A DNA stretch of 64,000 nt from Euglena gracilis (Eukaryota): contig CP154954.1 in the NCBI GenBank assembly GCA_039621445.1, positions 22,394,954 to 22,458,953 on the forward strand. Direction: 5' to 3'. The translations under genes and the position numbers were made by a program. The notes under the pieces were generated by a model, which was given only the letters and a program-made list of their open reading frames with translations, had not been told where the DNA came from and did no database searches. The first letter of the stretch is position 1, and every line of letters starts with the position of its first letter. This document shows positions 11,405 through 38,327 of this stretch, in pieces.

Positions 11405-12335
11405 TGTAATAATTATATAAATATTTATATATTATATTATATTAATTTATTATATTATATTATATTATATTATATTATATTATATTTATTATTATTATTT
11501 ATATTATATTATATTATATTATATTATATTATTTGTATTATCTTATATATTATATTGTACTATGTTATTCTATCTCTTCTCTTCTCTTCTCTTCTCTTCT
11601 CTTCTATTCTCTTCTCTATTTATTTCTCTTATTTTCTTCTCTTCTCTTCTCTTTATTATCCCTTGTCTTCTGTTCTTTCTCTTCTCTTGTATTCTCTTCT
11701 CTTCTCTTCTCTTCTCTTCTCTTCTTCTCTTCTCTTCTCTTCTCTTCTCTTCTCTTCTATTCTCTTTTCTCTTTTGTCTTCTCTTCTCTTCTCTTCTGTT
11801 GTCTTCTCTTCTCTTCTCTTCTTTCTCTTCTATTCTCTTCCCTTCTCTTCTGTTTTCTTCTCTCTCTTCTTCTCTTCTCTTCTATTCCTTCTCTTCTCTT
11901 CTCTTCTCTTTCTCTCTTCTCTCTCTCTCTTCTCTTCTCTTCTCTTCTCTTCTCTTCTCTTCTCTTCTCTTCTCTCCTCTTCTCTTCTCTTGTCTTCTGT
12001 TTTCTTCTCTTCTCTTCTCTCTTCTCTTCTCTTCTCTTCTCTTCCTTCTCTTTCTTCTCTTCTCTTCTCTTCTCTTCTCTTCTCTTCTCTTCTCTTCCCT
12101 TCTCTTCTCTTCTCTTCTCTTATATTCTCTTCTCTTCTCTTCTCTTCCCTTCTCTTCTCTTGTCTTGTCTTCTCTTCTCTCTATTCTCTTCTCTTCTCTT
12201 CTCTTCTCTTCTCTCTCTTCTCTTCTCTTCTCTCTCTCTCTCTTCTCTTCTCTTCTCTTTTCTCTTTGTTCTCTTCTTTCTCTTCTCTTTCTTCCTTCCC
12301 TTCTCCTCTTCTCTTCTCTTCTTCTTTTTTCCCCC
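11405..12335. repeat. Compound pentanucleotide microsatellite, (ATATT)n then (CTCTT)n
   Basis: Directly visible. Splits the RT of element B. Confidence 0.97.
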
Positions 12336-14379: not shown

Positions 14380-16474
14380 CCGCACGTCGTTTGCCCTTTT
14401 TTCAGGGCGAATGTGTTCAGGAAATTTTTGATTAGGTCCTTCAGAGCTTGCCCAGGATGCTCTAATCTTTGCCCTTGTGAGACCGTGCCTTGGTCGCTGC
14501 CGGCGCTGTTTGGATTGCTTTGGCGCGCCAGGCTAAGACATCCGGCTTGGTGCCTTTTTCGCCGCAGTTAGCTGACTCTAATTTTACCATTTGATGACAA
14601 AAAAAAAGGAACAGTAATGCCAGCATGAGAAGCGCGTGCGGAACTTCAAGTCAGAAATTGGTAATTTTTTTGAAGTATCTCAATGAAAGAATAAATTTCC
14701 AAGACGAACAGCCCCGGAAATCTTCAAGAGGGAGCAGCAATAGCAGCTGCCTACCTGGCGGCGCGACTGCGGCGAACCTTGGCTCCCCATTCCCCCAAAA
14801 AATTGTCACCAAAACAAAAATCGACAACCCAAACCTCGCAATGGACCCCGGCGGACAATGGTCAGAAGACCCCGAAAGGGTCCGTGGTGACATCTCGGGC
14901 TCCGCACTTTGCCCGTGTCAGGCCCTGCCTTGTTCACCGGCGGTGTTGTGTGATTGTTGCTGTGCGAATGTCAATTGAAAAGCTTACAGTTTGAATTTCT
15001 CACAATCCCACAAGGACTTTGTTTATTGGCGTTCAATGTCCATTCCTACCCTGCCTGTTTTCCTCTAGAAAGTACGAAACAGCCAGCAGGCCACTGCGGC
15101 CTGTGGATTCAGAGCCACGGAGGGCAACGTTTCCTAACACAACATACATCCAAGCGGGGCAATGCCAGCCAAGTCTGCATAGGCAATGACGTAAAAAAAA
15201 TCCGCGACGGCACGCCACCTAGGGCTCCACACTTCCTTTATGTGAGGTCATGCCTCTTTGCCGGCTGTCTTTCTGTTTGATGTTGTTGGGCTTCTCCTCC
15301 TTAGTGCCTTTTTTTTGCCCGTGCTGGCGGTTCCTAATTGTCCTTCGACATGGAGAAGATCACTTTATTTTGACAAGCGGAGATGACACGGCAGTCCAAC
15401 TGATGTGGATCGTGCTATTCTTATCGCCAGAAGTCGCCGTGGATGTGGCGGTGAGTTTAATCAACAACGCGCACAACTGCGAGATACCACAACGTGCACA
15501 GTCAGCATTGAGCGCCTCACTGGCGCCGCCATGGTGGCAGCGTTTCTGCAGGATTATTTTAAGTGCACCATGTACTCCATCGCCCTTGATTGCAAGGCGG
15601 ACCCCGGCACGCACTTCGAGGTGACGGACTGCCAAGCGGAAGTGGAGTTTGAACTGTGCTGGGTGTGGAGAGCGGCAGCTGGACGAGCTCTACCGCCAGC
15701 AGCCGCTGCAGAAGTTGTAGCGGCGGCGGCGGACCGACGAATGCCGTCTGGCGCGGCAGCGACCGCAATTGACGAAGAGTTTTATTCCGCAGAAGACGAG
15801 GAATATGGCCCGCTGGCAGGGGTTCCAGCGGATGTGCCTCTGCCGGCCGACCTGGCGGCCGAATATCATCGTTTGTCCGAAGGTCTGTCGCAAGTTGATG
15901 CCAGAGCTCTCTTGGAGTGAAGGGCAAGGTGAAGCTAAATAACCATTGCCAAGACGGCACTAGCCAGGCAGACATGGTGTCACGTCAAGTGAAACGGAAG
16001 TTTCTGTGGTTGCAGCGGGTTTATGTGTACGAGGCGTATGCTCTCTGCCCTTCTGATTGCAATTTTGAAATTTCTCTGATATTGTTGGCCAACTTCTTTC
16101 AAATAATTCCAACAGTACTCCAGTTTGGTGAAGACATGTTTCAGGTTGTCCTCATCAAACTGAGGCACTTTGTTCGCCGCAGTCGCACAATCTGCAATGC
16201 ATTGTTGCACATGGTTGAACTGCCTCACAAGGTGGTGATCCCCTGGAAGCCGAGCAACGATATATTGCCCATCTTCTGCAGTGAAGGGCTTCCCAGTCCC
16301 CTTCCCTTGGCCATCCATGGTTTGGGATGTGAGTGCGGAAGCGGCCTCTGAAGCCAATGACGTGGAGGGCTCATCGCCGCCCGCTGTCAATGATGACAAG
16401 TGTTTCCATCTTGACAATTGAATCAATTCTGCTTCATCAGCATGGGAACTGAAAGCGCTTTTACCTAAAAGCAT
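14380..16474. mobile_element. DIRS debris: three + strand left-ITR copies (about 14470, 14890, 15215) and gag-like fragments
   Basis: Recurring ctcgggctccgcact...gaggccatgcc...gccgg motif. KVKLNNHCQDG at about 15925 matches KAEENNHRQDG in the gag at 41.5 kb. Confidence 0.65.
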
Positions 16475-16793
16475 CTACTCTCCAGTTTTTTGGTCAATGT
16501 CTTGCAAGGATACCTGTAATAACACATTGTTGAATTGAGAGTTGGGGCTGCGCTTCGCTTCTTTCTGACAGCAAAAGCAGCAAAACCACACAAAAATAGG
16601 CAGTTTTGCGGCACCAGAGGGGTTGTAACGCTGAATACCGTAAAGAACCATCAGGAGCCTGCTCGTCTGCTTGGAGGGCGGCTAGAAGCCGGGGCTGACG
16701 TTGCAACCGTGTAATAACAGTGCAGGGGGCCCTCTGCTCCCAGTCAACCACAGAGAATTCTGTCTGTAAAGTTTGTGTAGGATCGCGACCTAA

Positions 16794-16803
16794 TCTGCAA
16801 CCA
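16794..16803 (-). promoter_or_regulatory. Probable tRNA-iMet primer-binding site of a Gypsy fragment
   Basis: gacgtaCA-ct-TGGTTGCAGA, in the same context as the sites at 30337 and 32249. Confidence 0.5.
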
Positions 16804-16999
16804 AGTGTACGTCTGATCTTCCCTTTTCCCCAAAAAGCCTTCGCTTTCACCTTGTCGCACCTACTTGGGGTCTGAAAATCAGAGTTACGGGTTTTGAGAA
16901 TTCCCCACACGGTAAGAAGCAAAGCACAGGGAAGGAAAACAAAAGGAGAAACAGGGTTGGAAGTTTATAATGAAATGTAGGAAAGAATACCACCTGTGG

Positions 17000-18036
17000 A
17001 GAGAGAAAGGTGGAGCGAGAAGATCCTAATAGGATCTGGTCTCATGCCGGATACATCGCGGCCTCGCCGCATTCTCCCCCGTATAGGAGAGACTGGCAAC
17101 GAACGAAAATTCGATGAAACGGGAAAAGAGTCCAACATATCGTCGGCTGCGTCACATCGACGTGCAAATTCATCAGCCTCTTAGCTTCCATGAAAGGTGG
17201 CATCACCTTCATCCGGGTTACCGGGGTAATGCCAGAGTGCTCGACTGAGCGGGTCTGCTACTTTTTGTGTATGGCCAGTGGTATATACAACCACTAGGTT
17301 GAACTGGCTCAAAAATTCATGCCATCGGCATCTTCGGCCTACGGATGACATGGCTTTGTTCAGATCCTCGGTATACCAGTGTTGAAGACTCTCATGGTCC
17401 GTCAACACCAGTATTTGTACCAAGGAACTGGCGACCCAGCTACGGAATTTTTGCAAAATAAGTACGATTGCGTACGTTTCCTTCTCACGGATACTCCATT
17501 TGACTTGGCCTCTGCCATCTTCACCTTGTAGCTTTCTACTGAAGAATGCTACATGGCGTAACTCGTTAGCCGCGTTATGCTGGCTTAGAACTCCACCTAC
17601 AGCATAATCGCTGCTATCGACTTCTAGCACATAAGGCTTGTAGGGATCCGCGATTTCCAGTACGACATTTTCAAGCATTAGCTTTTTAATGCTCTAGAGA
17701 TTCACACATATCTGCGTCCCATTTGATTTTGGTATTTTCGGGTGCGCGATTTTTGAGTTGTCTCGTCAGAGGTACCGCGATTTTCGCGAAATCTTTCATG
17801 TAAATCGCATAATATTGGGCTAATCCCAAAAATCTTTTCAAATTGGTGATGGTATTAATGACCTCAGGTGTCCATTTCTTAATGGCCTCTAGTTTGCTAG
17901 GCGCCGCTCGGCGTTGGCCATTATTAAGAATGTTTCCGCAAAACTTTATCTTTTCACGAAATAAGCGCATTTTAGCACCTTTGACAAAAAGTCTGTGTTT
18001 GAGAAATGCGGCTAACACCGCGCGAACATCACGATA
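17000..18036 (-). pseudogene. Ty3/Gypsy RT thumb/connection and RNase H
   Basis: LKRFLGLAQYY, VDSSDYAVGGVLSQ, AFFSRKL, EKETYAI, TDHESL, VADPLSR. Contains stops. Confidence 0.9.
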
Positions 18037-19382
18037 TGATGCGGGATATAAATATTGTACACCCCGTGACTTGGTTGATGAAGTACTTTTGTGTTATCAC
18101 AACCAAGGTCAGCCTGGGGCCCCCAAACTTCTTTCTTTGGTGGGTCGCACGTACTGTACAACCCTGAAAGAAAAAGATTTACATTCGCGCTGCTTGCAAA
18201 TTTCGCAACGGTGCCAAATTTATTAAGCGGTGAAACCGCGCAGATGTACCTCCCCTGGTACGCTTGACTTTTTCCCCGTACCTCCTGACATTTTTACGTC
18301 CCTCTGCATGGATTTCTGGAATTAGAACCTTGCAAAGGATCAGACGGCAAAATTTACATTACGTTTTTGTTGTCGTCTGTAGGCTGAGTGGTTACATAGT
18401 AGCTATTCCATGCCAAAAGGCAGGGTTGATCGCACAAATTTTAGCAGAGATATTTATGGAGAAGTGTATCTGCCTAATGGGCTTACCAAATGAGATTGTC
18501 AGTGATCAAGATCATTTGATCTCCTCTCGATTCTTCACAACCCTATGTGGTTTACTGGGAATCGAACAGCATTTTTCCATTATATATCGCCCGAAGGGCA
18601 ATGGCCGCGCCGAGGCAGAAGTGAAAGCTGTTGTAAATGTGCTCCGTCTTTCACTGGCTGACTCGCACCAGGCCTGGGTCCAGGTTTTGCCATGGTCCCT
18701 CTTTTGTATAAACACCCTACCGGGTTTAGCTTTACCGCAATCCCCATCTAAAATTGTTTTTGGGCGAGACCCCCCAGCAATTGGTGATATACCATCAAAG
18801 AGACCAGCTCGAAGTAGCGTAACCTGTGAGACATGGTTCTCTGAGGTAGAGTCTCTCAGAACTACTGTTCAGAAACGTATTACTGATATCCATTCTCAAA
18901 AGAGAAATAAATTTTTACAAGAATTCAAATCACCTGGCTATAGTGCTGGAGATCGCGTATGGGTTCGAAATAGCCGAATCCGTATGCAGGCTGCCAAGCT
19001 AGACCCCCTCTTGCTCGGGCCATGTGAAATTCTCGAGCGCGTTTGTAACAGTGGCCGCTAAAGGGTGGCACTACCCAACGGGATCGAGGATGTTCACATG
19101 GATGATTTCAAGCCATATCTTTCCCCGCCTAATAGCAAAGCACTACCGTGCCTTTATTTCAAGCCCCGTTCCAAGTTACCCGAAACGGATGACTTTGTGG
19201 TGGACAAAAATCTCGATCACAAAATTGATCGAGGAGTTCATTACTGGAAGGTCAGGTGGAAAGGCTATGGGCTAGAGGAGGACACCTGGGAGCCAGCCTC
19301 CAGTTTTATTGGTTATGTCCAACAGGACTGGAAGCTGTGGAATAAAATAAATAACATAGACATTTCTGTGACTAACTTTTGA
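18037..19382 (+). pseudogene. Ty3/Gypsy integrase with C-terminal chromodomain, opposite orientation to the adjacent RT/RH
   Basis: Zn-finger remnant, IVSDQD, NGRAE, GPCEI, chromodomain FVVDK...YWKVRWKGYGLEEDTWEP. Contains frameshifts and stops. Confidence 0.9.
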
Positions 19383-19519
19383 AATCGGCCTATAGGCCTT
19401 TTCCTCCCCTCTCTGTGTTTTTCTCCCGAACCCAATTCATTTCTCTCTTCAGCTCATCAAAGCTATTTTTTTGTTGCTTTCGGTCCCCGGACCAATGCAA
19501 GACCCAGGGCGCGGTTCAG

Positions 19520-20110
19520 GACCGCCCCCTATACAGTATGCTATCCCTCCCTACCCCCCCCCACGCCTATGCGGCGGCACCCCCAGCCCAAGGGGCGCCC
19601 CCATATGCGGTATATCAACCCCCTCCAGCCGCTTATGCGGCTCAGGCACAAATGCCACCCCCCCCCCCTCAAATGGTTCAGGCACAAATGCCATACCCCT
19701 CTCAGTCACATATGTCCGCCTCCTCTCAGGCACAAATGCCGCCCCCCTCTCAGGCACAAATGCCGCCCCCCTCTCAGGCACAACTGCCGCCCCCATCTCA
19801 GGCGCAACCGCCACCTGTCGCTTATGCGGCCCCTGTGCAAATGGGAGCTGCATACGCGGCACAGCCTCAACAGGCATATCAAGTTCCAATGGAGCAGTCA
19901 CAACCCCAGCAGGTACACCAGGTTCCAATGGAACAACAACACCAGTATGCGAGGCAGGGACAGGCACCTCCAATGGAGCAGGCGCATTACGCCATGCCTG
20001 GCCCCTCACCTCCCATCCTGTATTCCCCACAGTACGTTACATCTCAGCAACCCCAAACCCAACCCCAATCTCAACCCGTACAGGGTACCCCGCATCAAGT
20101 ACTCCTGAGG
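19520..20110 (+). CDS. Pro/Gln/Ala-rich repeat ORF downstream of the integrase
   Basis: 24-bp tandem units encoding SQAQMPPP, open frame 19379-20176. Confidence 0.4.
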
Positions 20111-21199
20111 ATGTTTCTCGTCTGCACCAATCGGTGGACACACAGAGGTGGCAGCCGAAGGGGCCGGGTAGACTGATCGTCCCCCTGCCACTCACGAGGC
20201 GGAGACATAGCGTATTTCCGTTCCATTCAGAGGCGGCGGCACATCCTCCAAAATGGTGACGGGGGAGTGCTTTTCGCGTTCCTCTCGCTGCAGAATATCG
20301 GTGGTGGAAGCGACTGACGTCTCAAGTCTCCTCAGGGCATCCGGGGCGATGTAGGCGCACAAATCCTCGAGCGATCGAGGATTTTTGGGGTGCCATAGGC
20401 ATCCCTGAGGACCTGCCTGACTGTAAAAGGTGAGCGTATTGTTGCTGGTGCTGTTGGGAAAGGGTGGCAGCCATGATGGTCGCACCCATTCGGGGCGATG
20501 ATGGTTGCCCCCAGACAACTACAATCTGAATATGGCCGGGCATTACACAGTACAGCAGTTAATCATAAGACAAAGAGAGAATCAAATTTGAGATCAAAAG
20601 CTTAATAAACTAAGTGGTTCCTAATTCAAGGTTGCAGGGTTTCGTCCCTTTGCAATTCTGTTTTAGAATTCGTGGGCGATGTCCTATTTTAATAAAAGAT
20701 TTTTTTCCTTCTTTGACAAAGCTCGAAGGAGCAAAAAGTACTTTCATACAAGGGACTGCGGTCCCAACAATTCTCTGTGTCTTTGTGCTTTGCAATGAAA
20801 TGGGGAAAGGTAATCAAATTTTATTGTTAATCCCTCCTCTGGCCTTTTTCAGGTGGAAAGGATGAGTAGAAAAGCGAGGGCGGGACTTACACCATAAATA
20901 CAGTTGACGTAGGCCTTCAGCCTTCGAGCCAACACACGCTGGTCTCAGAATCCCAAGCATGCATGCACCAGGAGTCATGTTTTGAAAACGCCACTCCGTG
21001 ACATTTGCCGCATCTTCAGCAATTTACACCGCATAATTGTGTTGTGAAACCTGCTGTTGGTTGGACAAATTGTCCAAACTCACAGACAAATCATGCACAC
21101 TTTGTTCCAAATGCTCAGCTGGAGGTGGCCGCAAACACGGTCAACCTCCTGCTCCAAAGCGCGAATATGCTTGCGGTAACGGAAAAATAATCCCAATGC

Positions 21200-22070
21200 G
21201 TAATCCTTTCAGAAATTTTGGAGACATTTTGAACGAGTTTCCTGTGAGACTCATCTAACAATTGGACTTGTCCCGTCAACGCTCTCACGGCATTTGAGAG
21301 AATCTTCAAACCATACCTTGGTTGGTGTGGTGGTGGGTGCAACCGGTTCAGGGTTTTTCGACAACGATTTTGTAGTACCCACGGGTAAAATTCCCGGTTT
21401 TGGCTTATCCAACAACACGAAAATTCGAAATTCAAAATTCGGAATTCGCTGGAGTTCCCCAATAGCAGTTTGAATACCGCTAATGTCAGGAACTCGGTGT
21501 GAAAGTGCGGAATAGCTCTGTTGCAAACCCGCAATGGCTCTGTTAATACCGCCAATGTCGGATTGCAAATGCAACTGCAGGGAATCCTGCCATTGTGATA
21601 CCTCCGCCACATTCACGCTCAGATTGGATAATCCAACCCAATTTGCGTCACAATAGCAGGGTTTCAGGAATATGTTCCTCCAACTGCTGCACATGCGAGC
21701 GTGGAACGAAATACTCGTTGGAATGTGACTGAAACTGCCGAAAATTTTCCGTTTTATCGCACAACTGCACGATGCGGTGTTGCGACTCGTGGAAAGTTGC
21801 GGATAGGGTGGTGAAATGGGTCATAGGCACAAATCTACCAACAGTGGTTGTTGTCTCGTGCATGCAACTGTTGCTGCAAATGCAACAACATGGATTAACA
21901 TGACTCCATTTGTCCCGGTAACTGCTGTAGTGAGTCATGCAAGTGCGGAAACTTGGAGTTATTCCGTATTTCCACTTCATGCATGCATCCACTAATTTTC
22001 TTTTATTTTTTGCCGGAGTTGTTTGAAAATTTTGTCGCAGTTTTTATGAAATTTTGCAAGCTCAATACCA
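21200..22070 (-). pseudogene. Degenerate copy of the Gypsy-associated coiled-coil ORF
   Basis: FVPRSHVQQLEE...PDISGIQTAIGELQ, similar to 28356-29045. Confidence 0.6.
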
Positions 22071-22209
22071 CACCTGGTCCCCGTCGCATTACGCGATCTG
22101 AATCTCCTTCCCCCCTCTTCTTTCGCAAATGGGATTATTCCCATGACCCTGTATATAGCACGATAGTGCACAGACTGCGCAATGGCGAGGTTGTACATAA
22201 TTATTCACT

Positions 22210-23286
22210 TCCCCCTTTTAGCATGTTTTTACACTTCAAAAATGTTTGAAATTTTATCATTTTTTGTGCGAAATTTAATCATTTTTTGGTTTTTTTGGTA
22301 ACTTTTCAAGTAAAATTATCACCACCTTCGGTGCTTCGGGTCAGGGGGATCTTATTTTTTCGGGGTCTGGATTTTTGCTTGATCGGCCCAGGGGGGGGGG
22401 TCTTATTTTGGGGGGGGTTAATGTCCCATGGTGTAGCGCACACTGGCAATGGTCTAGCAACTGTATGGCCTGGGACGATGTGGCTGGCGTGGGGCAGCAG
22501 TCGGGGTTCGGCCCAGTTCTGCGGGACATGCACCGCAGCGGAGGTGGGTGGCCTCTGCTGGGGCACTGGGGGGGGGGGGTCCCGTGGCGGGTGTACTGCC
22601 ACCACCACACAAACTGGGCCAGAAGTGAAGTTGGCGCTGGCCATAAGCAGACAAGAATGCTTTGTAACTGGGGGGAGGGGCACTGCTTACCCGTCCCAAG
22701 TGTAACTCAGCCAGAGTCAGGAAGAAACCCTGTGCCCAGGGTCCAGAAAGCACAGCGCAATCGGTCATAGGAATACACGATGTCCACAAGTGACAGTTTT
22801 GACACTTCTCACAATTTCTAATGGTACGTTCTTTCAGGCTCGGCATACGATGGATGCATATGATCAAAGATGCTGCATAATTTAATTGAACAAAGAGGGG
22901 GAAAGAACAGCGCAACGTCAGATGGAGTGAAGTTTGGCCATTCCGTCCACACTCAAATCACCATATTTCAATACTTCAATAACCTCCCAAGGCGTGCCAA
23001 AAGAAAACCAGCAAAGGGGGCCCAAAAACTTAGACACTTAGAGACTCAATCAGAGAGGTAATTCCCAGGGTTTATGGCAGCAAAGCCCACAGCAGCAACC
23101 TTGGCGAAGGCGAACGGGAGGTCGCGGCACCTCTTGGTGCGGTGGAGCCCTGGCTGCGCAGGGAGGACAAAAGAGACGGCTTTCCGCTGCTCCTTTGGAG
23201 GAGGGGGACCCTGGGTCGCCGGGGAATGGATCCTCTCCTCCTCCTGGCCCACCAGGCGGAGGTTGATGGGGCAGGCAGCCGTGCAG
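22210..23286 (-). other. Host-like fragment (two GC3-rich exon-like blocks at about 22470-22560 and 23100-23280) embedded in the Gypsy RT
   Basis: Exon-like codon usage (CPINLRLVGQEEERIHSP...; PPTSAAVHVPQNWAEPRLLP), with intron-like poly-T/poly-G sequence around it. Confidence 0.4.
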
Positions 23287-23860
23287 TGATGTCGAGAATA
23301 TTCTCGTGTGTATTCGCTGAAGGAGGGGGGGGGTACCAACCAATCATCAATGTATACCAGCGCAAACGGTAAATCCCGTAAGACCCATTGGATCATGCGC
23401 TGAAACATTGCTGGTCCATTCTTAACACCCATTGGTAAAACCGTCCATTGGTAAACACCTTTGGATGTTACAAAAGCCGTATAGGCTTGCGAATCGGGAT
23501 CCAGATGCATTTGGTGGAAACCATCCTCCAGGTCGAAAATTGACCACAAGCGGTTATCCGCTTGTTTTGTGATGAGGTCCTCTATTAGAGGTAATGTGAA
23601 TGGGTCATCCTTAGTCTGTAAATTTAAGTACCGATAATCCAGTACTAGCCTCCACTTTTTCTGAACTGATGGGTCTGGGGGCTTAGGAACCACAAAAGCT
23701 TGGGAGGTCCATTCACTATTGGAAGGGATGATCCACTTCCGCTCTATGAGCTTTTCAATCATTTCATTGAGAGCTATATCTCTTTCTCCTGAACAACGTA
23801 AAAATTTTCCGATGCATTGGATTTGCGCCTTCCTTAAGCTCGATTTTACAAACTCCAAAA
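23287..23860 (-). pseudogene. Ty3/Gypsy reverse transcriptase, N-terminal and core part
   Basis: WRLVLDYRYLN, FDLEDGFHQ, TAF, LPMGVKNGPAMFQ, YIDD. Confidence 0.93.
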
Positions 23861-24139
23861 GGTCCGCGGATAGCGGGATCTATATCGCAAGCGTAAACAG
23901 GATTTTCCAAAACACCAGAAAATTCGCGACTGATGCGCATACAAAATTCTGCTGAATTGGGGTGCTGTCCTGCACTTTCATTGACAGCGAAACCTGTTTA
24001 TGGGTCATATCAACCAGAGGGGTTTCCGAACGGTGATGCCTATCGGCATTATGGACAAAAACCGTATCGGCTCCCACATTGTCGGTATGATCCAACACAC
24101 TAACCTTCAGGGGTGGAGATTGAGAAACATGGAAATCAT

Positions 24140-24560
24140 CAAAGAAACAAACACGGAAAATGATTTCTTGGATAGGTGGTAATACCACTCCACGTAAATC
24201 CTGGAATAGAGGGACATCGTTTGGTAGGTCCCACCAATAAAATGTGACATAAGTCAAATTCTGAAACCATTCCGCTTCGGGATTCACAGGAACAAGTAAT
24301 GTGCCTCGCGCTTGATCCTTGAAAATCTTATCTACAACAAGCGGGATAAGTTTTAGGGGGGGATGCATCCATATGATAGTGCCTCCCCAAAACTTATCAG
24401 AAGCATTAGAATGTTGCGACCAATGTCGCGGTAATCGCGAATGCGCGTTGGAAAAGAATGCATCAATTTGCAAGGTCAAGCCAGAAGAATCCGCCATATC
24501 AGCGATTTTTGAAAACCAATGTTTCAAAATTCGATATTGACCAAATTGATAAGCATTCCA
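24140..24560 (-). CDS. Dam-like N6-adenine DNA methyltransferase domain inside Gypsy pol
   Basis: IDAF...N..LPRHWS...W...WMHPP...VVDKI......LLVP......WF pattern, matching the DIRS MT domains in this window. Confidence 0.75.
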
Positions 24561-25599
24561 GATATCCTTGGTGTACTTGGAGATCTGCTCAACACCCTGA
24601 AGGGGGGGAACACGCTGTAATACAGAACAACGTAATTGTGAATCATCCAAACATACGTCCATAGGACTCAATCCAGGTGGCGCATGGGTGGGTTGGGCAT
24701 ATACCCAGTCATCGGTGATGCGCGATAGCGCGGAATGCGCGATATGCGCAGGATTCGCACTATGTGCGGCAAGCTCGATATGCGCGGGATTCGCACTATG
24801 TGCGGCAAGCACGATATGCGCGGTGGTGTTGGAGAGCGCCATAGGCGCCTAAGGAGCGCTATGCGCAAATCCGAAGAGGGAGGCTATGCCTTTGCACTGT
24901 AGTGCTTGATTCACTTTCGCGAATTGCGAAAAACTGCCAAGTGGATTTGTGAGCTGTGAATAATTACCAAGTGTACTGATGGGTGTATCACCCATGGTAC
25001 CAAGGCTGTGTACCTTTTGGTTATCTATTAAATCCGTACCAAGTGTAGAGGTACCACTACCAGGTGTAGGGGGCGAAAAATTCCCGGTTGCGGGATCCAA
25101 TCGGATTAGTTTGGAAACTTCAACTACACATCCACAATCAAAATCATGGTAAGTGGAAATTCTCCGACAGTGAGCGCATTGGTAGGAGGGTTGGTGCATG
25201 TGGTGCGCGTTTGTGTGGGTTTCAGTGCATAAGTTGGTGTCGGTTGGGGTAGCTGCTGGGGGGTGTACAGGGGTGTCTGGTGTCGAGACACCTGGTGGAA
25301 AACGAAAAATTTGTGCAGCTGGGCAGCTACTCGACACCGTAATTACTTCAGGCCTTTGCGCTTTCGCCTGGGAACCCAGCGAAACGTGCGGGGTTAAGCT
25401 ACTGGCTTTCCCTACCGCATGGGAAACGAGCGGTAAAAGTGCGGTGGGTAGGGGGGCAGCTTTCTCTTTACCCCTAGGGTAGGAAACGGTGTTTTCGGTT
25501 GTGGAAAACGTTGTGGAAATGCGGGGGGACATCCTGGGGGATGTCCCGGGGAACAAGTTCGGGGGTGTGGTGTGTGTGCGGGGGGTGGTGCGCAAACCG

Positions 25600-26021
25600 T
25601 GCGAAGGACAATCCACCACCAATCGGTTTTTCCGGAGGAACAGAAAACCGAGTATGACATCTGACCTGGCGATATTCGCCTGGAATGCCCAAGTACCCAG
25701 AAAATTTTGAAATTGTGGGGTGTGTGTGTGGTGCTTCTAATAAATGGGGAGGACTATGTCCAAAATGCATCCCAAGTCACCACCGCACATGGGGCTGTTG
25801 TCAGCGGTCATAATTTTGATGGGATTCTTGGCATGAACCAAGAGGGGGGTGGGCATAAGTCCTTTGCGGAAAAGAAGGGGGATTCGACACCCTGTGTCGA
25901 CTAAAATTTTGGCTTGTGCACAGAAATTTTGAGTTTTGATTTTCGCTTGGACCAAACGTTCCATGGGGGGTACGCAAAGCGAAGGGTCGGGTGTAAAATT
26001 GTTGTTGCGCCAACTGTCCAT
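25600..26021 (-). pseudogene. Retroviral-type aspartic protease
   Basis: ILVDTGC and downstream DVILG. Confidence 0.85.
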
Positions 26022-26352: not shown

Positions 26353-27378
26353 ATTGGTCATTGGCAAGCACATTTCTTTTGAAGAATTGGTTCAGCAATA
26401 TGCTTCCTCATGCTCCAGTTTGGTTTCCAGAATCAGTCTGGAAAACAAATGGCGTCAATTCACCCCCCCGGACCGCAAATGGAAGTCGATAGACTTGTGG
26501 TACTCTAAGTGGCTTGCATTAGCAGACGAGGTTGATGAGTTAGGGGAAAAGCAAATCAAAGAACAATTTGATGCGGTATTACTGCGCTACATCCCGAAAC
26601 TCATCAAGGAAATTCACCGCGAGGAACTCGCGGGACACATTTTGACTCTCGATGAGAGATGGAATTATATTTCAAAACAAATGAAGTTATCACAACTTCT
26701 GGGACAGTTTGAAGCGGCATATCACCACTACCCTACCGCGGGTGCACCCACCGGTTCAGTCCATGCACTCCAAAGGACTACCTCCCCAAAATCACCAAAA
26801 TCACCATCGAGTGATTCCAAAACGCGCTATCCGCGCTCAAACCCCAAATCCCTGACACGGGAATCCGAATCGCGCTATTCCCGCCCTTCTGACCAAGTTT
26901 CGGACAAAGTGTGCTTTTTGTGTAATCAACCAGGACATATGTCTCGCGAATGTCCGAACCCCCAAGCGCGAAAGCGCAGTAAGAGTCCCCGAGGATCCCT
27001 CTCTTCCTGGAGTTCGCGTTCCTCACGATCTGCGCATTCGCAGCGGTCGCGATACCGATCGTGTGATGGAAGAGCGCGTTCCCGTTCACCCCACCGCAAT
27101 AGCGGACGTGGTTTTGTACCGCGTGGTCGGTCCCCCCGCCCCCTACCGGCAATCGGGATGCGAATCGCGTTTCTTCGCGATCGCGGTCGCGAAGTTGATC
27201 ATCATCTTCGCGATCCGACCGCGGCCGACCGGATAACCGCTCCCCGCGTCGGTATGATGCCAAAAGGCAATCGCATTCGCGAAACAGTTGTTCCCTTTGT
27301 GGGTCTAAATACCACCATTCATCCAAGTGCCCCCGTTCCTCCTCTCCCCGCCCTAGCAATGGTCGTCGCGATTCCAAT
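26353..27378 (+). pseudogene. Gypsy gag C-terminal part with CCHC knuckle and RS-rich tail (internally inverted)
   Basis: CFLCNQPGHMSREC. Flanked on both sides by - strand gag/pol. Confidence 0.85.
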
Positions 27379-27727
27379 CGATGGCGCGTTCTTTTTCATC
27401 CCTGGGGAGGCAATCAATGAATTCCATCTTGATTACCTCAGGGTTGTCATCTTGGGTGGGTCCCTTCAAATCCCAATAATAGTCCCAATCGCGGAAAAAT
27501 TGTTTCCATGTGGTGGGGCCACCGTCCCATTGGGGCTTCACCTTGTTCGCTATCGCGATGGTGCCTTTGAAATCTTTCTGAGAAACCCGTGGGCCTTCGG
27601 TGGTATTCCAGGGGTGCGGGCCCGGGCGCGAAATCGCACCACGTGCAGGTACTCCGGTGGTTGCACCAAGGGTATTGTTCGGGTTATTTTGCAAGTCTGG
27701 TTTTCGCTTGAAAACCCGACTCATCAT
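27374..27727 (-). pseudogene. Gypsy gag N-terminal part
   Basis: PQWDGGPTTWKQFFRDW capsid-like motif, ending at the inversion breakpoint. Confidence 0.7.
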
Positions 27728-27879
27728 CCGAAAACTCGTGCATTGGGACTGGTAATGCTAGTGGTGGAACCACCGCATGAGCAGAAACGCGATTTGGCGG
27801 GAATGTGCACGCGAATAGCGCTTTTCGAGCTGGAAGATGCGGCAAGTATGCCTAACATACCCGACTGCGGGTTTTGGTG

Positions 27880-29260
27880 GATGGAACACATTTGTGCGTA
27901 AATTTGGTCCAAATTTGTTGCAAATTTATGCACACTTTGCTCCAAATGGTCAACAACCTGCCAATTGTCGGTTATCCGACTCACATCCTCCTGCAAACGC
28001 TTAATCCACCTACGGTGTGAGGATAGCTCATCCAAAAGCGGGATTTTGTCACAAATTGACTGAAAATCGTGCGTAATTGCACCAAACCCAGAGTCCAGTT
28101 CCTGTACTCTTGTCACCAAAGTGCAAATCGCACTGGAAATGGCCTCCAATTGTGGAGATGGCTTGGTGTGTTGGTCCGAATGCGGACTTTTGACTTTTCA
28201 GCCATTGGCTGTTCCATCAAAACAGAAACTTGCGCGGATAGCGCGGTAATGTCATATTGCAGTTTTGTGACATCCTGCTTCACCGTTTTCGCAGTGTTCA
28301 TGAGACTGTCACAAAATCCTTGCATGATTTGGTGATTTTCCGCGCGCATTTCAGCTCAAACCTTGTCCAAGTGTGTTTTTGGGAGTGTGGGGGTAGGTGT
28401 TGGTAACGGCAATGTGCCTTGGGGTGGTGATTGCACCTGAAGCATTTTTGTGCTCGTTTCTTGCATGCGTTTGTGCAAATCCGCTATCGCGGTGTGCATG
28501 CCGGTAACATCCGGGATCCTACCAGCTACTTCCGCATAGCGGGTGTGCAACTTAGCCAATGAGGCTTCAATGTTACCAACATCCTGTTGTAACTGCTTGT
28601 GCAAATCAGACATGGTGGCCTTGAGTCCACTAATATCCGGTGTTGATGCACGGGTTGCCGCATTGCGGTTTTGCAGATCCGCAATTGCGGTTCGGAATTC
28701 CATTGTGTCACTCTGCCACTGTAGTTGCAAATTGTCAATCCTACTCGCGATATTCGCGATTTGGGTGTGAAAACTTGCAATTTCAGCGGGAATCTCACCA
28801 CAATGGCAAGATTTCTGCTCCAATCGAGAAAGGTTTTCCTTCAATTGTTGCACATACGTGCGGGGGGCAAAACTTTCGTTGGCTTGGGCAGAAAAGTGGT
28901 TAAAATTCGCGGAATCACCGCTCAACTGGAAAATGCGCTGTTGCGATTCCTGAAATGCGGTTGCAAGTGTGGAGAATTGCTCCATTGTAATGAATTGTCC
29001 CAGATCAGGATTTTTGATAGGGGTTTCATGCGATTTTTGCTGCAATTGTGGGAAAATTGCCGTGATTGGCTACAATTGATGGGACAAAGCTTGCAAAATA
29101 TGTTGCATGTTGGAGAAAATCGCATCATTGCGGGATTGTGTTTCACACATGGCTTCACTCACCTTTTGGAAGTGTTGTGACAAATATGCCTGCAAATGTG
29201 TGTCCAAACCTTGACGCAAAGTTGCGAGGTCCACATTGGTGGATTGAAAATTTGTTTGGA
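27880..29260 (-). CDS. Coiled-coil-like ORF upstream of Gypsy gag
   Basis: 229-aa ORF 28356-29045 with heptad-like L/I/Q/E pattern, plus frameshifted continuations. Paralogous copies at 21.2-22.1 kb and 32.8-33.8 kb. Confidence 0.55.
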
Positions 29261-30336
29261 ATAAGAAGGCGAGGCCTCTCGCTTACCCCTGGTATCAGGA
29301 GCAGGTGGCGCTGCAGCAGACGTTTGCCGTCTGTGTTAAATTGGCCTAGTGACCGCTGGATCACACATGACACTCCGAGGAGTCGACAAGGGTTCTAGGG
29401 GCCCCCATGCCGGCCGTTGCCATTCAGGTTTACCCTGCCCGGCTTGGCGCGGTGCTGTGGTCCTGTTGCTTCCACGTGCGCTGGAACTCCCATAAACTCA
29501 GCCATCGTTCTCGGTACTCCAAGGATCCTGCTTGGTGTCCGTGGTCATGGAGGTACTTCCTCCACTTCCACCTCGACATCTGGTCTAGAAGGTTAATCAA
29601 TCGCGACTGCTGGCGCAGGTGCTACGAAAGGTTGCTCCTCCGTTGTAGCCGGTACCACAGATATCTCTGTCGGCTGAGGTTCATCCACTGATGGTAGTTG
29701 CACTGCTGCCAGAGGCTGGGGTGTTGGGACACCGGCATCTGGCGCCTCCACGACCTCAGCGGAGGAGCTTGATCCTGCGCCTCCACTTCGCGGCGTTAGT
29801 GTAGCGGCCGCGGAAGAAATGCCTGAGCCCACGGCGCCGAGCACACGGCCTCGTAATGAGGGACGTGCTGTGAGACTGGCAGGTTCCTCGAGGGTAGCCT
29901 CGACGACCATAACAGCCACATCGGCTTGGGGTTCAGTGTACCAGGCACAATCCCAGTTCTGTGGTTCGCCATAGAACCGCTCATCCACAATCTGAATGCT
30001 GAGCATAGTCTCAGAATTAGGACTGTGGCAGAGCTTAGAGATAATCGTGATCACGATCACACGTGATCACATGACCTCCTCTCTGCACCTGGTATTTTTT
30101 TCTACTTTCAATTTTTTTCAAGTTTGATTTCACCAAACAAGTCCTGAAAGGACTGCCAGATACTTGGCATCTTTTGTCGTAGCCCATAGGGCTTCTCCCC
30201 CTGTCTTGTGCTCTGCCTCTTAATTGGGGAAAAGGGCAAAACAACTTGTATATTTATTTCATATTTTTCTTGTTACTCTTACCTATATCCTTTTCTGCGC
30301 ACCAAAGGGCGAAAGCGATAAGTTAGGACGTACACT

Positions 30337-30345
30337 TGGTAGCAG
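30337..30345 (+). promoter_or_regulatory. tRNA-iMet-type PBS after an LTR-like CA end
   Basis: ggacgtaCA-ct-TGGTAGCAG. Confidence 0.6.
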
Positions 30346-31032
30346 TTTAGGTTTTTCGAACCTTTTGACCGCAGACGGTCGTGTGGTGCCCCGCCTATAG
30401 GTGAACACAAGCACTACAAGCCGTTTCCGGCCAAAGCCGTACGCACGGACACGTCCTCTGACGGTTCGCAGTATACGCTGCTTCAAACCTCAGAGTTCGG
30501 GTCACTGATCCCCTCTTTTTGCACTTGTTCCTGCACTTTACACCACAATTTACACTTTGTTTTTTGTGTTTTTTGCCTTAAAAATGCAGAGCGCAACTCC
30601 CATCGACTACGCTGCATTGATTGGTTCACTTCGTGGACTTGAACATGCAGCACCATTGATCAGCTCCATTGAGCATTCACAACCCCATAGGCTGACTGCC
30701 ATTAGGCAGCAGAAAGGGTCACTGAATCGATAGATTCAGCAACTCTTCGTCAAAAGAGGGCCCTTCCACTATGCCCAGGAACAATACCTGGACATTCTGG
30801 AACAGGCGCTCACCCCAAGTTCTGGCACAGTACTTCGGCGAAGACCGCGTGTTAGATTTGCAGCACGGCACGTCCTTGGCCTGGACGTGCACAGTGTACC
30901 ACCCTGTGAGGAACCACCAACCGCTTGTGCATTTGTGCACATTTGTGTTCTTCTTTTTTCGTGAGCTCGTTGTCCTTTCTTCCGGGTGTCGAAAGGCATG
31001 TCGATAATCAGCCAACTCCGGCAAAAAAGGCA

Positions 31033-31830
31033 CGACACCTCCGGCTCCGCACTTTGCCCTTGTTAGGCCATGCTTGCTCGCCGGCGATCTGTTGTTTGAT
31101 TGTGACGTGTTGCGTTAGGCGTCCCTGCTTAGTGCCTTTTTTTCGCCGGAGTTGGTGATTCCTAAATTGCTATTCGACACCCAGAAGAAAGGAGAATACC
31201 TCAACTCAAGGCAACGAATTCACCAAAGGAATTCAAATTTAAATATCCGAACGAGAAGAACCAGCTGAATATCAAACTTTAAAAGAATAGAAAAAAATTA
31301 AATATCTGCCTTCAATGAAAGATGAATTGGCGAAGACATTGGTATTACGACGAGAAGCAGCAGTAGCCGCAGCAGCTGGAGAACCCAGAGATGCGGAAAA
31401 GCCGTGGCAGGCTGTGGTCACCCCTTCCCCACCGCTCTCAGAAATTGTGCCACAGCCAAACCGCCCCAGTGACCAGCCAGGAATTCAGGTCAAAGGGCCA
31501 GAGCCCACATGGGCAGATGGAACCAAGTCCAAGGGGGAGAACATCACAGAGGCCACGGAGGCCAGTATTTCAAGTCAACCCCCACTGGGAGAGGTCAACC
31601 AGAAGGTCTGCCAAAAACTTCTTTTCATAAAGTCTTTTCCACATTCCACACAAAGAGGCAGATACCTCAATGCCCAACAAGTTTCAATTGGGCATGGGAG
31701 CAGAAAGATTACCAATACCCAAGGGGGGTCAAGACCATTCAACAAGGGCAGGGGACCCTTTCAAAGCAGGGCCATGGCGGCCATGATCTGCTGGTCAACG
31801 ACGGCATTTTCCAGGCCATGAAGTCAACAT
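31033..31830 (+). mobile_element. DIRS 5' fragment (left ITR plus gag), abutting an opposite-strand ITR fragment
   Basis: gacacctccggctccgcactttgcc start. MKDELAK... gag. Confidence 0.7.
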
Positions 31831-32149
31831 TGTGTACCAGGCAGCATGAACACCATCACACTGTGCCAAGCAGCAATCTGCAGAATGTGCAGTGGCATGC
31901 CGGATAGTACTATTCATGGTTCTGCAATACTAATTGCAGAATCATGAGTAGCCTATCCTATCTCGGATCTGCCCCTCCCTTCACAGGTGGTATTAATTTG
32001 TTTCATGCTTCATTAGCGCAAAAGGGCAAACCGCGATTTGAAGATTTGAACTTAGACAGGAGAGCACTACTGGAACTGAAGTTTCCAAAATCACACCTGG
32101 TTTGTCTTGTGCTCTGCATAAGCTCAGGGCAATAAAAACTAATAGTTAA

Positions 32150-33780
32150 GTGAAAGACGTACTTTTTTTTTGCTCTCCTTGTTCTGTTCCCACGGGAGGG
32201 TGTAAGTAGGCCGACAGGCAGTGGGAATAGAGTCAGGGGACGTAGACTTGGTAGCAGATTAGGTTTCATTCCTACGCCCATAACCCCCCCTTCCACAACA
32301 GCTGACTTCAAACGGTCAGTGGTGACGAACCAATAGGCCACAAAGCCACCACAAGCTGTTTGGAGCCAACTTGTACGTAACGGTTCAGGCTTGTGGAGGC
32401 TCTGGGCAGTATACGCTGCCACAACCTTCTAAGTTTGTTCCTTTGCTAGCCTTTTGGGGTTTGCTTTTTTTGTTTTCTGCAACTAAAAATGTGCAGAGCT
32501 CAACCACCAACACACTCATGGATTACAACGCATTGATTGGTGCTTTGAGAAGAAATTGTTATACATAATTACAGGAGGAGTATAGGCTCCTACAAGCTTT
32601 TTCACTCCTAATGGGGACACCTCAAGCTCTATTGAGCATTACCACACCTAAGGTGTGCCACACTCCGTTGTTCCCTTCCCCAGCTCTGTCGAGCATCCGT
32701 CCACACAAATGCCAAGCTCTATTGGTCATGATCAACCGCAACGGGGTCCACGCCTAACGGTGACTCAAGCACCCCCCGATACGGGTTCTTTTCCTGCATT
32801 GCCTTGTATGGATTTGGCTAAGTTGCGCCAACGTTTTGAGACACATTTGCAGGCACAATTGCCACAAAATTCCAAAACGTTAGTGAGACAGAGTGGGAAA
32901 TACAATCACGCAATGATGCGAAGTTTTCCCACTTGCAACATTGTTTGCAGGCTTTGTCTAATCAACTGGAGCCAATTATGGCAATTTTTCCACAATTGCA
33001 GCAAAAGTTGCATGATCCTCTCACCAAATATCCCGATTTGGAAAATTTTATACACTGGAGCACTTTTCCACCGTTGAAACTGCTTTTCAGGAAGCGCAAC
33101 GGCGCATTTTCCAACTGAGCGGTGATTCCGTGATTTTTTCCCACTGTTCTGCCCAAGCAAGCGAAAGTTTTGCCCCCCGCACTTATGTACAAGAATTGGA
33201 GGAAAGTTTTTATCGCTTGGTGCAGAAACCTTGCCATTGCAGTGAAGTTCCCAGTAAAATTGCACGTTCTCACACCCAGATTGCGAATATTGCGGTTAGG
33301 GTTGAGGATTTGCAACAACGGCGGCAAAAAGATATGGTAGAAATTAAATCCGATTCGTCAAAGGGTTGTGCCCTCATATGCGGAAGTGACCGGCAAAATC
33401 ACGGATATGACCGGAATTCAAACCGCGATAGCGGATTTACAGAGATACTTGCAAGAATTAAGCACAATATTGCTTCAGGTGCAATCACTAACCCCAGACA
33501 CGTTGCCTTCGACCACACCCGTATCCACACTCACATCCCTACACTTGGAGCAGTTTTGTGCCGCTGAAAATCACCACGTTATTGAAGGAATTTGTGACAG
33601 TCTAATGAATACCGGGAAAATGGTGAAAGAGGATGTCACAAAAATGCAAAATGACCTTATCGCGGTATCTGCGCAAGTTTTGGTCTTGGTGGGCAGCCTA
33701 TGACTGACAAAGTCAATAACTCTGCATTCGGACCAACCATTTCCACAATTGGAGGCCATTTCCAGCCGTGATTTGAAGCC
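32150..33780 (+). mobile_element. Gypsy 5' fragment: LTR end, PBS (32249-32258), coiled-coil ORF remnant
   Basis: TGGTAGCAGA. Similar to 30250-30650 and 28100-29260. Confidence 0.65.
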
Positions 33781-34082: not shown

Positions 34083-36910
34083 TGGTAGCAGGTTAGCCTT
34101 CAACAAGACTACAGAGACATCAGAAGCCCATTCTCCTTGGAAGTTGGCAGAAGTGAGATCCCGACTCCCAGATCTGAAGGTATCAGTGGATAGAGGATCG
34201 GATCCTGCAGCTGTGACCGCCGCGGCAAGCTGCGAGCATCGCTGCGTACAGAAGTGAAACTCAGGAGCACGGCCGTGGAGTCAAGAATTGCCTGTGTTCA
34301 GCGATCTACGTGTAGGCCATCTGGTGCACTATCTCTACCACTTCTACAGCTGTGAACGTCTGGTGCCGGCTGGTACAGTGTTTTACTTCCAAGAGGCTAT
34401 CTGGCAAGCATCTGGCCGTGCTGCAGAACACCTGCGTTCAAGTACGACTTCTCGAAAGTGGTTCTGTGGCTATCTGCTCCTGGGACGACCGCCAGTTCAA
34501 CTCTCCGGTCCTATTCAAGTGCTGTAAGCCTTATCTGGCTGGTGGATACCGCTGGAAGGTTCGCCAAAGCTTAATCTTCAAGTACAACCACTTGGAGTGT
34601 GGAGAATTTGTTCAAGGGGTTTGCGGAGCCTCAAGCACCTCACATCCTACTTCCTCCAGTCTCTCAAGCCCAGACGACCATTTGGGAGACCTTCTACAGC
34701 CAGAAACACCAAGAACGTTACCAAGGAGGTGATAACCACACCAACGCCACCTTCACGATCGTGGGTACGTTTGCGGCATCATCGACATTGCTGTTCGTGG
34801 AGTTTCGACGTGGAGAGGATAGGACCTCTTCCTGACATCTCCCAGCACCACCATTTTGCAAGGCTCGAGGTTCCCTGTCCCATTCTCTTCCGTTTTGGGT
34901 TTTCCATCAATCTCCCAAACGGACCTCCATTTGGCATTACATTCTCGATCCGGTTTACATCATGATTGTGCGTTTTGGCCTTTGGAACCCCAAATATGAA
35001 GAGTAAGCCTCGAATTCGCCCAAAGACACCTGGAAAGTTGAGACAAACAAGAGGGAGACCGAAAATTTTGTCGAGGGAAAGCTCATTTTCAAGCGAAAGT
35101 TACATCATGGGGGAGGGTTCCCCATTTGCCCCCCGAGTTGACAAAGTGGTGACACAGTTTTCAAGTTTACAGGAACGTTCCAAGGCTTTTGTTTTGAAGT
35201 TGCCACCACAAGAACTTCCCAAATTCAATGGGAGTGATCTTTCAACTTTCATCAAACGATTTTCAAGGTGGACGAGATTGTCTGGTGCAAAATGTTTGCG
35301 AAACAACCAAAAATTGGGTTGGCTTTTACAGGCTCTCGAACCCAACGTTTTTTCCAAGTGTGGGGTCATTGGTTGACAAAGGGTTGCCTTTTGATGGAGA
35401 AACTATGGCCATGGTATGAAAGTGATTTGACGTTGCGTTTTAATGTCGAGAATGTCAACACCTTCCATACAACGCGAAGCCGAGTGAAGTTCAACGCCAT
35501 TTGAACGAGATGTAGTCCATTTTTTGCCAAAGTGTCACCCGAATAAATGGGTTTGTAAGAAAAGTTTTTGGTCTTCACGAGAAAGGTGTATCCGAAGTTT
35601 TGGAATGAAATCCGATCCGACCATTTCTTTAAAAGAAACAGCGAAACGTTTTCGAATTTGAAATAGATACTCATGGAAAAGTCGAAAGAGGATTGGATGG
35701 AAAAGCAAATTTCGGGAAACACGAGTCATTAGAAGGCAGAATTGCACGCTTTGGATACAACCGAACCCCCACAATAGGTTTCGAATGTTGAAAAGGGGAA
35801 AGGCAATGGATCCAAAGGCAAAGGCAAAGGGAAAGGCAAAGGAAAGGAGTAGGCACATGGAAAAGGTGGGAGGGGCCAACCCCCAGCCAAAGCACCCCCC
35901 AACGAAAGATTTAAAACGACTGTTTGGTGCAATTTTTTGCAAAAAGACAGGACATTGTGAAAGCGAATGTTTTGCAAAGTTCCCCGAGTTACGTCCAAAA
36001 AGAAAGATTTTTCGAAAACATATCCCCAAGAAGCTGTGAGTGATCCCCAAGCAATTCCAAAAAAAAGGCGGATGTGCTTCTTTTTCTCAACAACGCCTTT
36101 TGGAGGGATGCACTGGTGAATGGTCATCCAGTGAGAGCCATCATCGACACCGGAGCCACTACAAGCGTGATTTTGAGTTCATTTGTTTCGGAAAAGAATT
36201 TGCAAAGGGGAAACACAATTCTGATTCAAGTTGCGTCCCGGAAAACTCTCTTGTCTTTGGGATAGGCAAACATCACCTTGAATTTTGGAAACAAAGAAGT
36301 CAGTTTGGTTTTGGACACCCAAGCGTTTGAAGCGGTGTTGGGTTTGGATTTTATCGGAACGAATACATGTGGAGGAATTCTTACACACCCAAGACCATGT
36401 CGCCTCATTTTTCGACAAACGCGGTACCATTTGAACGAGGGAAACCAGAAAGCGGGTGTGTATCAAGTGCAAAGAACTTTCTAGAATGAATCGTACACAT
36501 TGGAAGGAAGCTTGAGGTGTGATGCATTCAAATTTTTGGGTGTGAAGCAAGATGATGTTATTTTGGACCTTTTTGCGAGCCGCTTTAATCACGCGGAAGA
36601 AAAGTACATGACGTGGCAAAACTACGCTTTTAAATACAACTGGGGAAGTTTGGTAGCTACCTTTGGGCAAATCCACCCTTTTCACAAATGGATCGGGTTG
36701 TGACAAAAGCGATCATGGAAAAGTGTCAAATGATCCTTGCCACGCCAAATTGGCCGAACACGTATTGGCCAAGGCTTTGAAAAAAGTCACAGTAAAAAGC
36801 AAAACGATTCCCCAAGGAACACCGTTGTACCTTGGAGATTGGGAAGAAACCCCTTCCATCACATCCATGGAAAACCAAATTTTTTTTGGTGGATGCCAAA
36901 GAAATTGAAG
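34083..36910 (+). mobile_element. Truncated LTR retroelement: PBS, gag, Zn knuckle, protease, Dam-like MTase
   Basis: CA-ag-TGGTAGCAG; LPKFNGSDLSTFIKRF; FCKKTGHCESEC; IIDTGA, LGLDF; LDLFAS...WANPPF (36664-36681)...TPNWP. Contains frameshifts. Confidence 0.8.
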
Positions 36911-36989
36911 TTGACACTTCGGAATTGGATCTCGCATTGGTTTCATGGGCGACAAGGAACTCCAAGGGATGGCTGGAGAGAAGATTGGA

Positions 36990-37940
36990 ACGGTGAAACG
37001 AACACCGCCAGCGAGCAAGGTATTGAACGGCGAAACGAACACCGCCAGCGAGCAAGGTATGGCCTGACAAGGTCTTTGTGATTCGCTGTGTGGTTCGTGA
37101 AGGTGTCCCTTCCTCCTTTGTGGTTTGTCCTCGAGGGAGTACAAGGTCCATAATTGTGAACATTGCAATCAATCCAACTACCAATAGAAGATGGACGTGG
37201 AGAAAACTCTCGTTTCCAAGCTCACCGAGGAAAGACCGCTGTTCGAACAATCGTGGACCGAGTTCATTTTCAACTTGGATCAACTAAGGATGCTACACGA
37301 CCTGGAGAAGACCGTCGTCATCGCCATCTTTCAGGCTGTATTGAAGTTTACTGGAACGGGTTGGTCGACAGGAAAAGCATCAAAGCGGCTGTTCCAGATC
37401 AGCGGAATGTAATTACTGAAGGCCGAATTTGCCCCTTGCAGAGACTCTTGGCTCATGGCCATCGCACTCCTGCACGAGATCGAGCTCCATCGAAGTGGCA
37501 CCCGAGGTAGCAAAGGACGCCTTCGCCATTGCGAAGGCCGTGGAAGCCGCCGACTCGGAGGAGTCACCTGAGGAGAACACCCAGGCGAAGGACGAAGAGC
37601 CAGAGAAGGCCAAGTTCACGTGGGACGAGGTGGAGGTCCAAGCACCTCGAGAACTTCTGGAGCTGTGGAGCAGGGCGGCAGGCGGCAATCACAGCATTCT
37701 GAGCAAAATATAAGCTATGTACGCAATGTACATGTGCTTGCGACACATCTTTCAGGACTTTGTCGCTGCGAGCTGGGATACCCTGCAGCCTGGGGTTGGC
37801 CTCGAGGAGAGAAACCCTCTGTTTATTCAGATCCTCAGACTTGGCACAAGTAAAACGAACCCGAGTGTGCTGGGTAGGGCCCCCTACATCGAGATAAAAC
37901 ACAAAGGCCAGAAACTCCACAAGTGAGAAAGAGTTGTGCC
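36990..37940. mobile_element. DIRS debris: right ITR/extension with a 39-bp duplication, gag and YR fragments
   Basis: aacaccgccagcgagcaagg x2, cctcgagggag end, LCLFRSSDLAQ fragment. Confidence 0.6.
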
Positions 37941-38077
37941 AATACCCCAATTTCCACAAAAAAGCTCCGGAAAAAGGGGGACAGGGTGGGCAGAGCAGGG
38001 AGACCCTCCGAAGGAGAAAGTGAACGCGTCACCGCCGTCACGTCGGAGGCACATTGTCAGCCAAATCCAGCGAGGCG

Positions 38078-38139
38078 GCATATATATACATATATATGTC
38101 TATACATACATGTAGGCGTCTATATGTATATATATATAG

Positions 38140-38178
<39 letters not shown>

Positions 38179-38291: not shown

Positions 38292-38327
<36 letters not shown>

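Follow-up and report, generated by a model that had tools for sequence, protein, structure and literature searches.

Retrotransposons that combine LTR-type Pol with a Dam-like (DAM) domain have been defined as DAM-LTRs, with five lineages that include chromodomain-bearing chlorophyte and Euglena groups (Fernandez-Moreno 2026, bioRxiv 10.64898/2026.05.21.726589). According to this preprint, the NPP motif is kept in almost all DAMs, the DAM-LTRs of Euglena gracilis carry more N6-methyladenine (6mA) than other LTRs, and representative DAMs from transposable elements showed no activity in dam- E. coli. The carriers named in its text are Gypsy-like and DIRS elements only, and the DAM-LTR model assumes that elements gain permissive chromatin through 6mA written by these domains. 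For DIRS1-type elements, the available text of Iyer et al. (2016, PMC4738411) places the methyltransferase (MT) domain in the PCIF1 clade and judges it likely inactive; the same text gives the amino-methyltransferase consensus as [DNSH]PP[YFW], the aromatic residue of which stacks on the target base. We analyzed a stretch of 64,000 nucleotides from E. gracilis (GCA_039621445.1, contig CP154954.1, positions 22,394,954 to 22,458,953, hereafter the window) and identified a chromodomain Ty3/Gypsy retrotransposon with a Dam/PCIF1-fold domain between protease (PR) and reverse transcriptase (RT), the window copy of which is dead and rearranged. The novelty implied for such an element in a preliminary description of the sequence was overtaken by the May 2026 preprint. 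The kind is already known, the present family may be among the 6mA-enriched E. gracilis elements, and as the discovery of a kind this locus adds little.

The motifs that define the element lie on the minus strand. These are VDTG of the protease (25890-25901), IDAF (24456-24467), WMHPPL (24354-24371, with HPPL at 24354-24365), LLVP (24288-24299) and EAEWF (24264-24278) of the Dam-like domain (24126-24587), and YIDD of the RT (23343-23354). At the 5' end, a coiled-coil ORF piece (28356-29069, minus strand) is, from its position, probably the N-terminal part of gag; its Pfam matches are weak and to coiled coils only. An ORF at 27353-27757 (minus strand) had no match in the Pfam scan and is a probable gag capsid piece, as it adjoins an inverted gag segment (26353-27382, plus strand) with a CCHC zinc knuckle at about 26909-26959 (zf-CCHC, E 1.9e-7). 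The aspartic protease (25626-25970, minus strand) matches Peptidase_A3 weakly (E 0.064) and is 36-46% identical to the PR region of P0005, P0007, P0009 and P0152. The spacer that follows holds a CxxC-x10-CxC motif (25128-25178, minus strand) and, in a variable part, a tandem repeat detected with TRF (24740-24823, minus strand). Downstream of the Dam-like domain, the N-terminal two thirds of the RT (23286-23931, minus strand; RVT_1, E 4e-21) contain a frameshift near 23805, end just past YIDD and are 89-93% identical to residues 20-236 of P0163. The preliminary description had read gag, protease, spacer, methyltransferase and RT in this order on the minus strand, which holds for the protease, Cys, methyltransferase and RT motifs but only in part for gag, as about 26353-27382 is inverted. 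It had also seen a Cys motif (CxxC..H..C) in the spacer, which is present but has the form CxxC-x10-CxC, and the His is not conserved; the supposed 13-residue repeats have a unit of 36 bp (12 amino acids) in 2.3 copies and do not align in the relative P0001.

The remaining pol sequence is fragmented, distributed over the two strands at a distance of 1-6 kb. The C-terminal part of the RT with RNase H is displaced to 17040-18036 (minus strand; RT_RNaseH, E 1e-23) and is 91-92% identical to P0163 residues 236-569. A displaced and inverted piece of the linker between RNase H and integrase lies at 22070-22225 (plus strand; 90% identity to residues 563-614). The integrase (zinc-binding part, core and SH3) and the chromodomain are inverted at 18032-19382 (plus strand; rve, E 4e-7; Chromo, E 7e-8), interrupted by stops and one frameshift and 76-94% identical to residues 617-1066. 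The Pfam domains matched are RVT_1, RT_RNaseH, rve, Integrase_H2C2 and SH3_Tf2-1. Directly 3' of the chromodomain stop is a Pro/Gln-rich ORF with 24-bp repeats and without a Pfam match (19376-20259, plus strand), which might belong to the element as a 3' ORF because its coverage is of the same order as that of the integrase (runs X1 and X13).

By coordinate, the motifs of PR, DAM and RT fall in a single frame, but this frame is not open in the window copy. In-frame stops occur at about 25737, within the protease, and at about 24849 and 23880; compensating frameshifts are present in the linker between the Dam-like domain and the RT, and the RT is broken off just after YIDD. P0163, which runs from RT to chromodomain in one ORF, maps at 76-94% identity to four separate places in the window (23286-23931 and 17022-18036 on the minus strand, 22070-22225 and 18032-19379 on the plus strand), and in both P0163 and P0213 the scattered window pieces are matched within one ORF. 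Contigs from 4 runs join 23289 to 18036, as well as 17058 to 22070 on opposite strands; contigs from run X1 only join 22204 back to 18036, and a joint between 26353 and 27382 on opposite strands occurs in all 4 runs. Because these joints restore the normal pol order, other copies have that order. Together with the mapping of P0163, the joints assign the chromodomain integrase to the same family as the Dam-like domain, a pairing that the preliminary description had rightly proposed. The window copy is most simply described by three inversions plus approximately 1 kb of other DNA with breakpoints inside genes, arising from real rearrangement or from mis-assembly. A search of this rearranged copy for an LTR pair between 29000-33000 and 15500-23300 found none. 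The copy is dead and makes nothing.

The window domain matches the Pfam Dam HMM (PF05869) weakly, with 17.5 bits (E 0.0035) against a cut-off of 28.1, and the PHROG 111 DNA methyltransferase with E 1e-4. It has a Rossmann/N6-methyltransferase fold with PCIF1 as the top fold match in the PDB. A Dam-like N6-methyltransferase fold between PR and RT had been proposed from the motifs, with profile and fold searches as the check, and the motifs, the fold match and the PHROG match bear it out. Among cluster representatives, 293 relatives were found at E<=0.001; the listing gave 150 of them. Dam was matched at E<=0.01 by 38 of 43 relatives, and P0156 had no Dam match in Pfam at E 0.01. As the Pfam Dam scores of these domains are only 17-27 bits, the screen in the preprint at E<1e-5 may have missed many of them.

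Relatives with intact reading frames showed that the domain is a regular part of the polyprotein. P0001 encodes spacer, DAM, RT, RNase H and the integrase zinc domain in a single ORF of 1208 amino acids and has the same HPPL motif. A query for DAM and RT yielded 59 long proteins among 3224 candidates, and in the 18 proteins in which both domains could be placed, the DAM precedes the RT in 16 and follows it in 2. Six of the closest proteins (P0156-P0160 and P0162; 1643-1805 amino acids) contain PR, DAM, RT, integrase and chromodomain in one chain, and the one-ORF architecture is also found in P0213 and P0153; a chromodomain was found in P0156, P0158, P0163 and P0213. The domain is thus heritable across the clade, and all 11 RT-clade members spanning the region retain it. 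Neither outcome that the preliminary description had named as refuting, a missing methyltransferase fold or other copies lacking the domain, was observed. The window copy and P0001 are 71% identical in the DAM and 90% identical in the RT, compared with 26% in the spacer half next to the DAM, and four further relatives are 39-44% identical in the DAM, comparable to the 36-46% of the protease. As these identities are well above that of the adjacent spacer and comparable to that of the protease, the Dam-like domain is under purifying selection. Domain traits of Ty3/Gypsy chromovirus-like elements are present, with a one-ORF PR-RT-RNase H-integrase order, a Gypsy-type RNase H, a DDE integrase and a C-terminal chromodomain; this placement rests on the domains, as the RT tree contained no reference RTs. 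UniRef entries from Eutreptiella gymnastica group with one protein of the wider PR-DAM-RT clade, and the lineage is probably euglenid. No cytosine DNMT was found in the Pfam scan of the window ORFs or in P0156, P0158, P0163 and P0213, all of which end at the chromodomain, and the window element is therefore not an EpiLTR (DAM, DNMT and chromodomain).

Of 15 subclade proteins, 11 contain the spacer motif CxxC-x10-CxC, which is absent from all 18 other DAM-LTR proteins tested. It is a putative zinc ribbon gained by this subclade.

The motif IV pocket is altered in this branch. In the window HPPL, the first three residues fit the consensus and the Leu at the fourth position does not. Whereas the preliminary description had pointed to His in place of Asn as a variant or inactivating change, the His lies within the consensus; the motif is indeed altered, but the loss is at the fourth residue and clade-wide. 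In the RT tree (62 rows), the clade of the window copy (support 0.95) has no canonical motif in any of the 11 members covering the domain (HPPA in three, HPPL in two, NPPI in two, and HPPS, NPHY, NPSL and NPPL), and the sister and neighbor clades have mostly NPPF. A further close member, P0213, has HPPP, and the fourth position is free to vary among the closest copies (HPPL, HPPL and HPPP). In a wider, hand-picked subclade the motif is canonical in 1 of 21 members. Compared with 65 canonical relatives, this subclade has lost N46, F75, W99 and W138 (profile numbering), while S54, H56 and F25 have become invariant and the polar residues D39, R19, S43, S54, H56, K62 and K84 are 95-100% conserved. 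For wider counts, the domain was located in 196 of 208 proteins; 150 of them had sufficient length, and de-duplication at 90% left 136. Loss of the aromatic residue and loss of W99 are concordant in 118 of these 136 domains, and the Asp of the DAF (SAM-loop) motif is retained in 41 of 46 non-aromatic domains; these covariation counts are phylogenetically non-independent. Other intact lineages are also degenerate, with HCPR, HPPD/N and CPPQ motifs. The HCPR cluster (P0190) has 2833 members, a size that suggests that degenerate elements spread well. P0189 and P0194, abundant and strongly degenerate relatives with HCPR, are polyproteins that combine DAM and RT with PF00692; we take this family to be dUTPase, in agreement with the label of a cluster member.

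With a little better than even confidence, we interpret the Dam-like domain of this branch as a retained pseudo-methyltransferase that would bind its ligands without efficient adenine methylation. This reading draws on the clade-wide loss of the aromatic residue and W99, the kept DAF loop, the constraint on the domain, the judgment of Iyer et al. that DIRS methyltransferases are likely inactive and the lack of heterologous activity reported in the preprint. An ancestor in a probably euglenid lineage would have captured a DIRS-type DAM. The domain would be made with Pol and packed into the particle, and the protease may trim it free, alone or with the zinc motif. Judging from its motifs, it might then bind SAM and the RNA or RNA:DNA intermediate of the element, and, transferring methyl groups inefficiently at best, could act as an accessory of reverse transcription or as a decoy. 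Counting against a pseudo-enzyme are that His is an allowed first residue, that this family may be among the E. gracilis DAM-LTRs with raised 6mA, and that the newly invariant S54, H56 and F25 could serve catalysis and are as compatible with a new substrate as with loss of enzymatic function.

A domain that is still an enzyme with a changed chemistry or substrate (RNA, an RNA:DNA hybrid or another base), its pocket remodeled with His for Asn, is a credible if unlikely alternative. By parsimony, N-to-H arose approximately 8 times and N-to-C 3 times, compared with 0 origins of N-to-D and 1 of N-to-S even though Asp and Ser are transition neighbors. The aromatic residue is absent in 21 of 26 His domains and in 20 of 91 Asn domains, and the closest solved fold is that of an RNA enzyme, PCIF1, all of which, with the new invariant residues, would suit a remodeled pocket. 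However, the DAM tree has weak inner support and 3 apparent H-to-N reversals. In addition, the fourth position is unfixed (L, I, V, A, S, P or H) and the first flips between N and H within the subclade (N in 57%), an appearance of relaxed constraint. We put forward very tentatively a broader version, in which euglenid Gypsy elements repeatedly rebuilt the captured Dam/PCIF1-type pocket (N-to-H, with loss of the stacking aromatic residue and W99) into a new activity. Coupled here to the gained zinc ribbon, this could be a SAM-sensing or RNA- or hybrid-modifying module within the particle, distinct from 6mA writing.

Adenine methylation by this lineage is doubtful. An active 6mA DNA methyltransferase, as envisaged in the preliminary description and in the preprint, would mark the cDNA of the element, which, in the preprint model, host AMT1 would then keep permissive. 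The intact fold and DAF loop agree with this proposal, but we consider it improbable given the clade-wide loss of the stacking aromatic residue and W99 and the inactivity of representative TE DAMs in E. coli. Rated lower still is a vestigial domain, kept only for stable folding inside the polyprotein and with no function of its own. The conserved positions are often hydrophobic core or Pro/Gly, and 571 bp of the domain are deleted in one run X1 contig, but the depth of that contig is 535 compared with summed depths near 6e5, and the near-complete conservation of polar residues in the subclade and the retention of the domain throughout the RT clade also argue against it. A chance insertion of a DIRS fragment into this one copy has a negligible probability. 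Dam-like pieces are also present in several DIRS-type elements of the window, but on the family profile these pieces reach only 10-18 bits, compared with 172 bits for the Gypsy domain, and the relatives with DAM before RT in one chain or one ORF refute it.

Several further elements were observed. A second decayed element in the window (34966-36990, plus strand) has a gag-like ORF, a protease (IDTG) and a Dam-like domain with canonical NPPF (36485-36990, in three pieces), which is 26-28% identical to the HPPL domain; DIRS-like sequence truncates this element ahead of any RT. The 5' part of a second element at 32823-33326 is an 80% nucleotide match to the probable gag piece at 28356-29069. DIRS-type elements with their own MT pieces lie at 5755-9751 (minus strand), at about 37000-42500 and at 48869-49730 (plus strand), and the piece at 49345-49602 reads HPPW, which shows that in this genome DIRS-type domains can carry His as well. 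Short repeats starting with CAGGG at 11316-11406 and 38341-38431 are 79% alike, each adjoins a microsatellite run, and they are possibly MITEs. Outside the window, the Gypsy-type polyproteins P0081 and P0155 have a DAM (NPPW) that follows RNase H and precedes the integrase. This is a second insertion site and possibly the Chloro-Ochrophyta type of the preprint. In P0121, a JGI protein of 522 amino acids from one short contig only, a Copia-type RT (RVT_2, E 2e-65) comes immediately after a Dam domain (NPPF, E 6e-11) within a single chain; a literature search found no published case of a Copia element with Dam.

That whole clades with intact polyproteins keep the domain without its base-stacking residues suggests that it is retained for more than catalysis, or mainly for something other than catalysis. 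The NPPF, HPPL, HCPR and HPPD families of related elements are natural controls, with an NPPF and an HPPL family in this one window, and because such families coexist, nanopore data already at hand could be used to contrast 6mA between them.

Among known systems, the window element resembles the DAM-LTRs, many of which have a chromodomain and for which Euglena is a named host, in its Ty3/Gypsy-type pol and PF05869-like DAM, but its clade differs in having [NH]PP followed by a non-aromatic residue and in the loss of W99. The text of the preprint names neither the PR-DAM-RT position, which its figure may show, nor the zinc motif, and a literature search found no published description of a degenerate, zinc-motif-bearing subclade, although the preprint supplements may hold one. 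With the DIRS1-type MT, placed in the PCIF1 clade in the text available, the window domain shares its family and its top fold match, PCIF1. In DIRS elements, however, the MT follows RT and RNase H and is accompanied by a tyrosine recombinase, an order also seen in the window DIRS ORF at 6779-9751 and in P0102, whereas in the window family the DAM precedes the RT with a DDE integrase in the same ORF. Compared with the cap-specific m6A methyltransferase PCIF1/CAPAM (PDB 6IRV, 6IRX) and the phage Dam-like enzymes (PF05869, PHROG 111), the domain is approximately 10-19% identical, lacks the helical and WW domains and has HPPL for NPPF. Like KnitGypsy-Dnmt3 and SymbioDIRS-Dnmt3, as described in the available text of de Mendoza et al. 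(2018, PMC5890265), it is a methyltransferase domain that a retrotransposon Pol has acquired and that selection maintains, but those are C5-cytosine DNMTs of an unrelated enzyme class with conserved catalytic residues.
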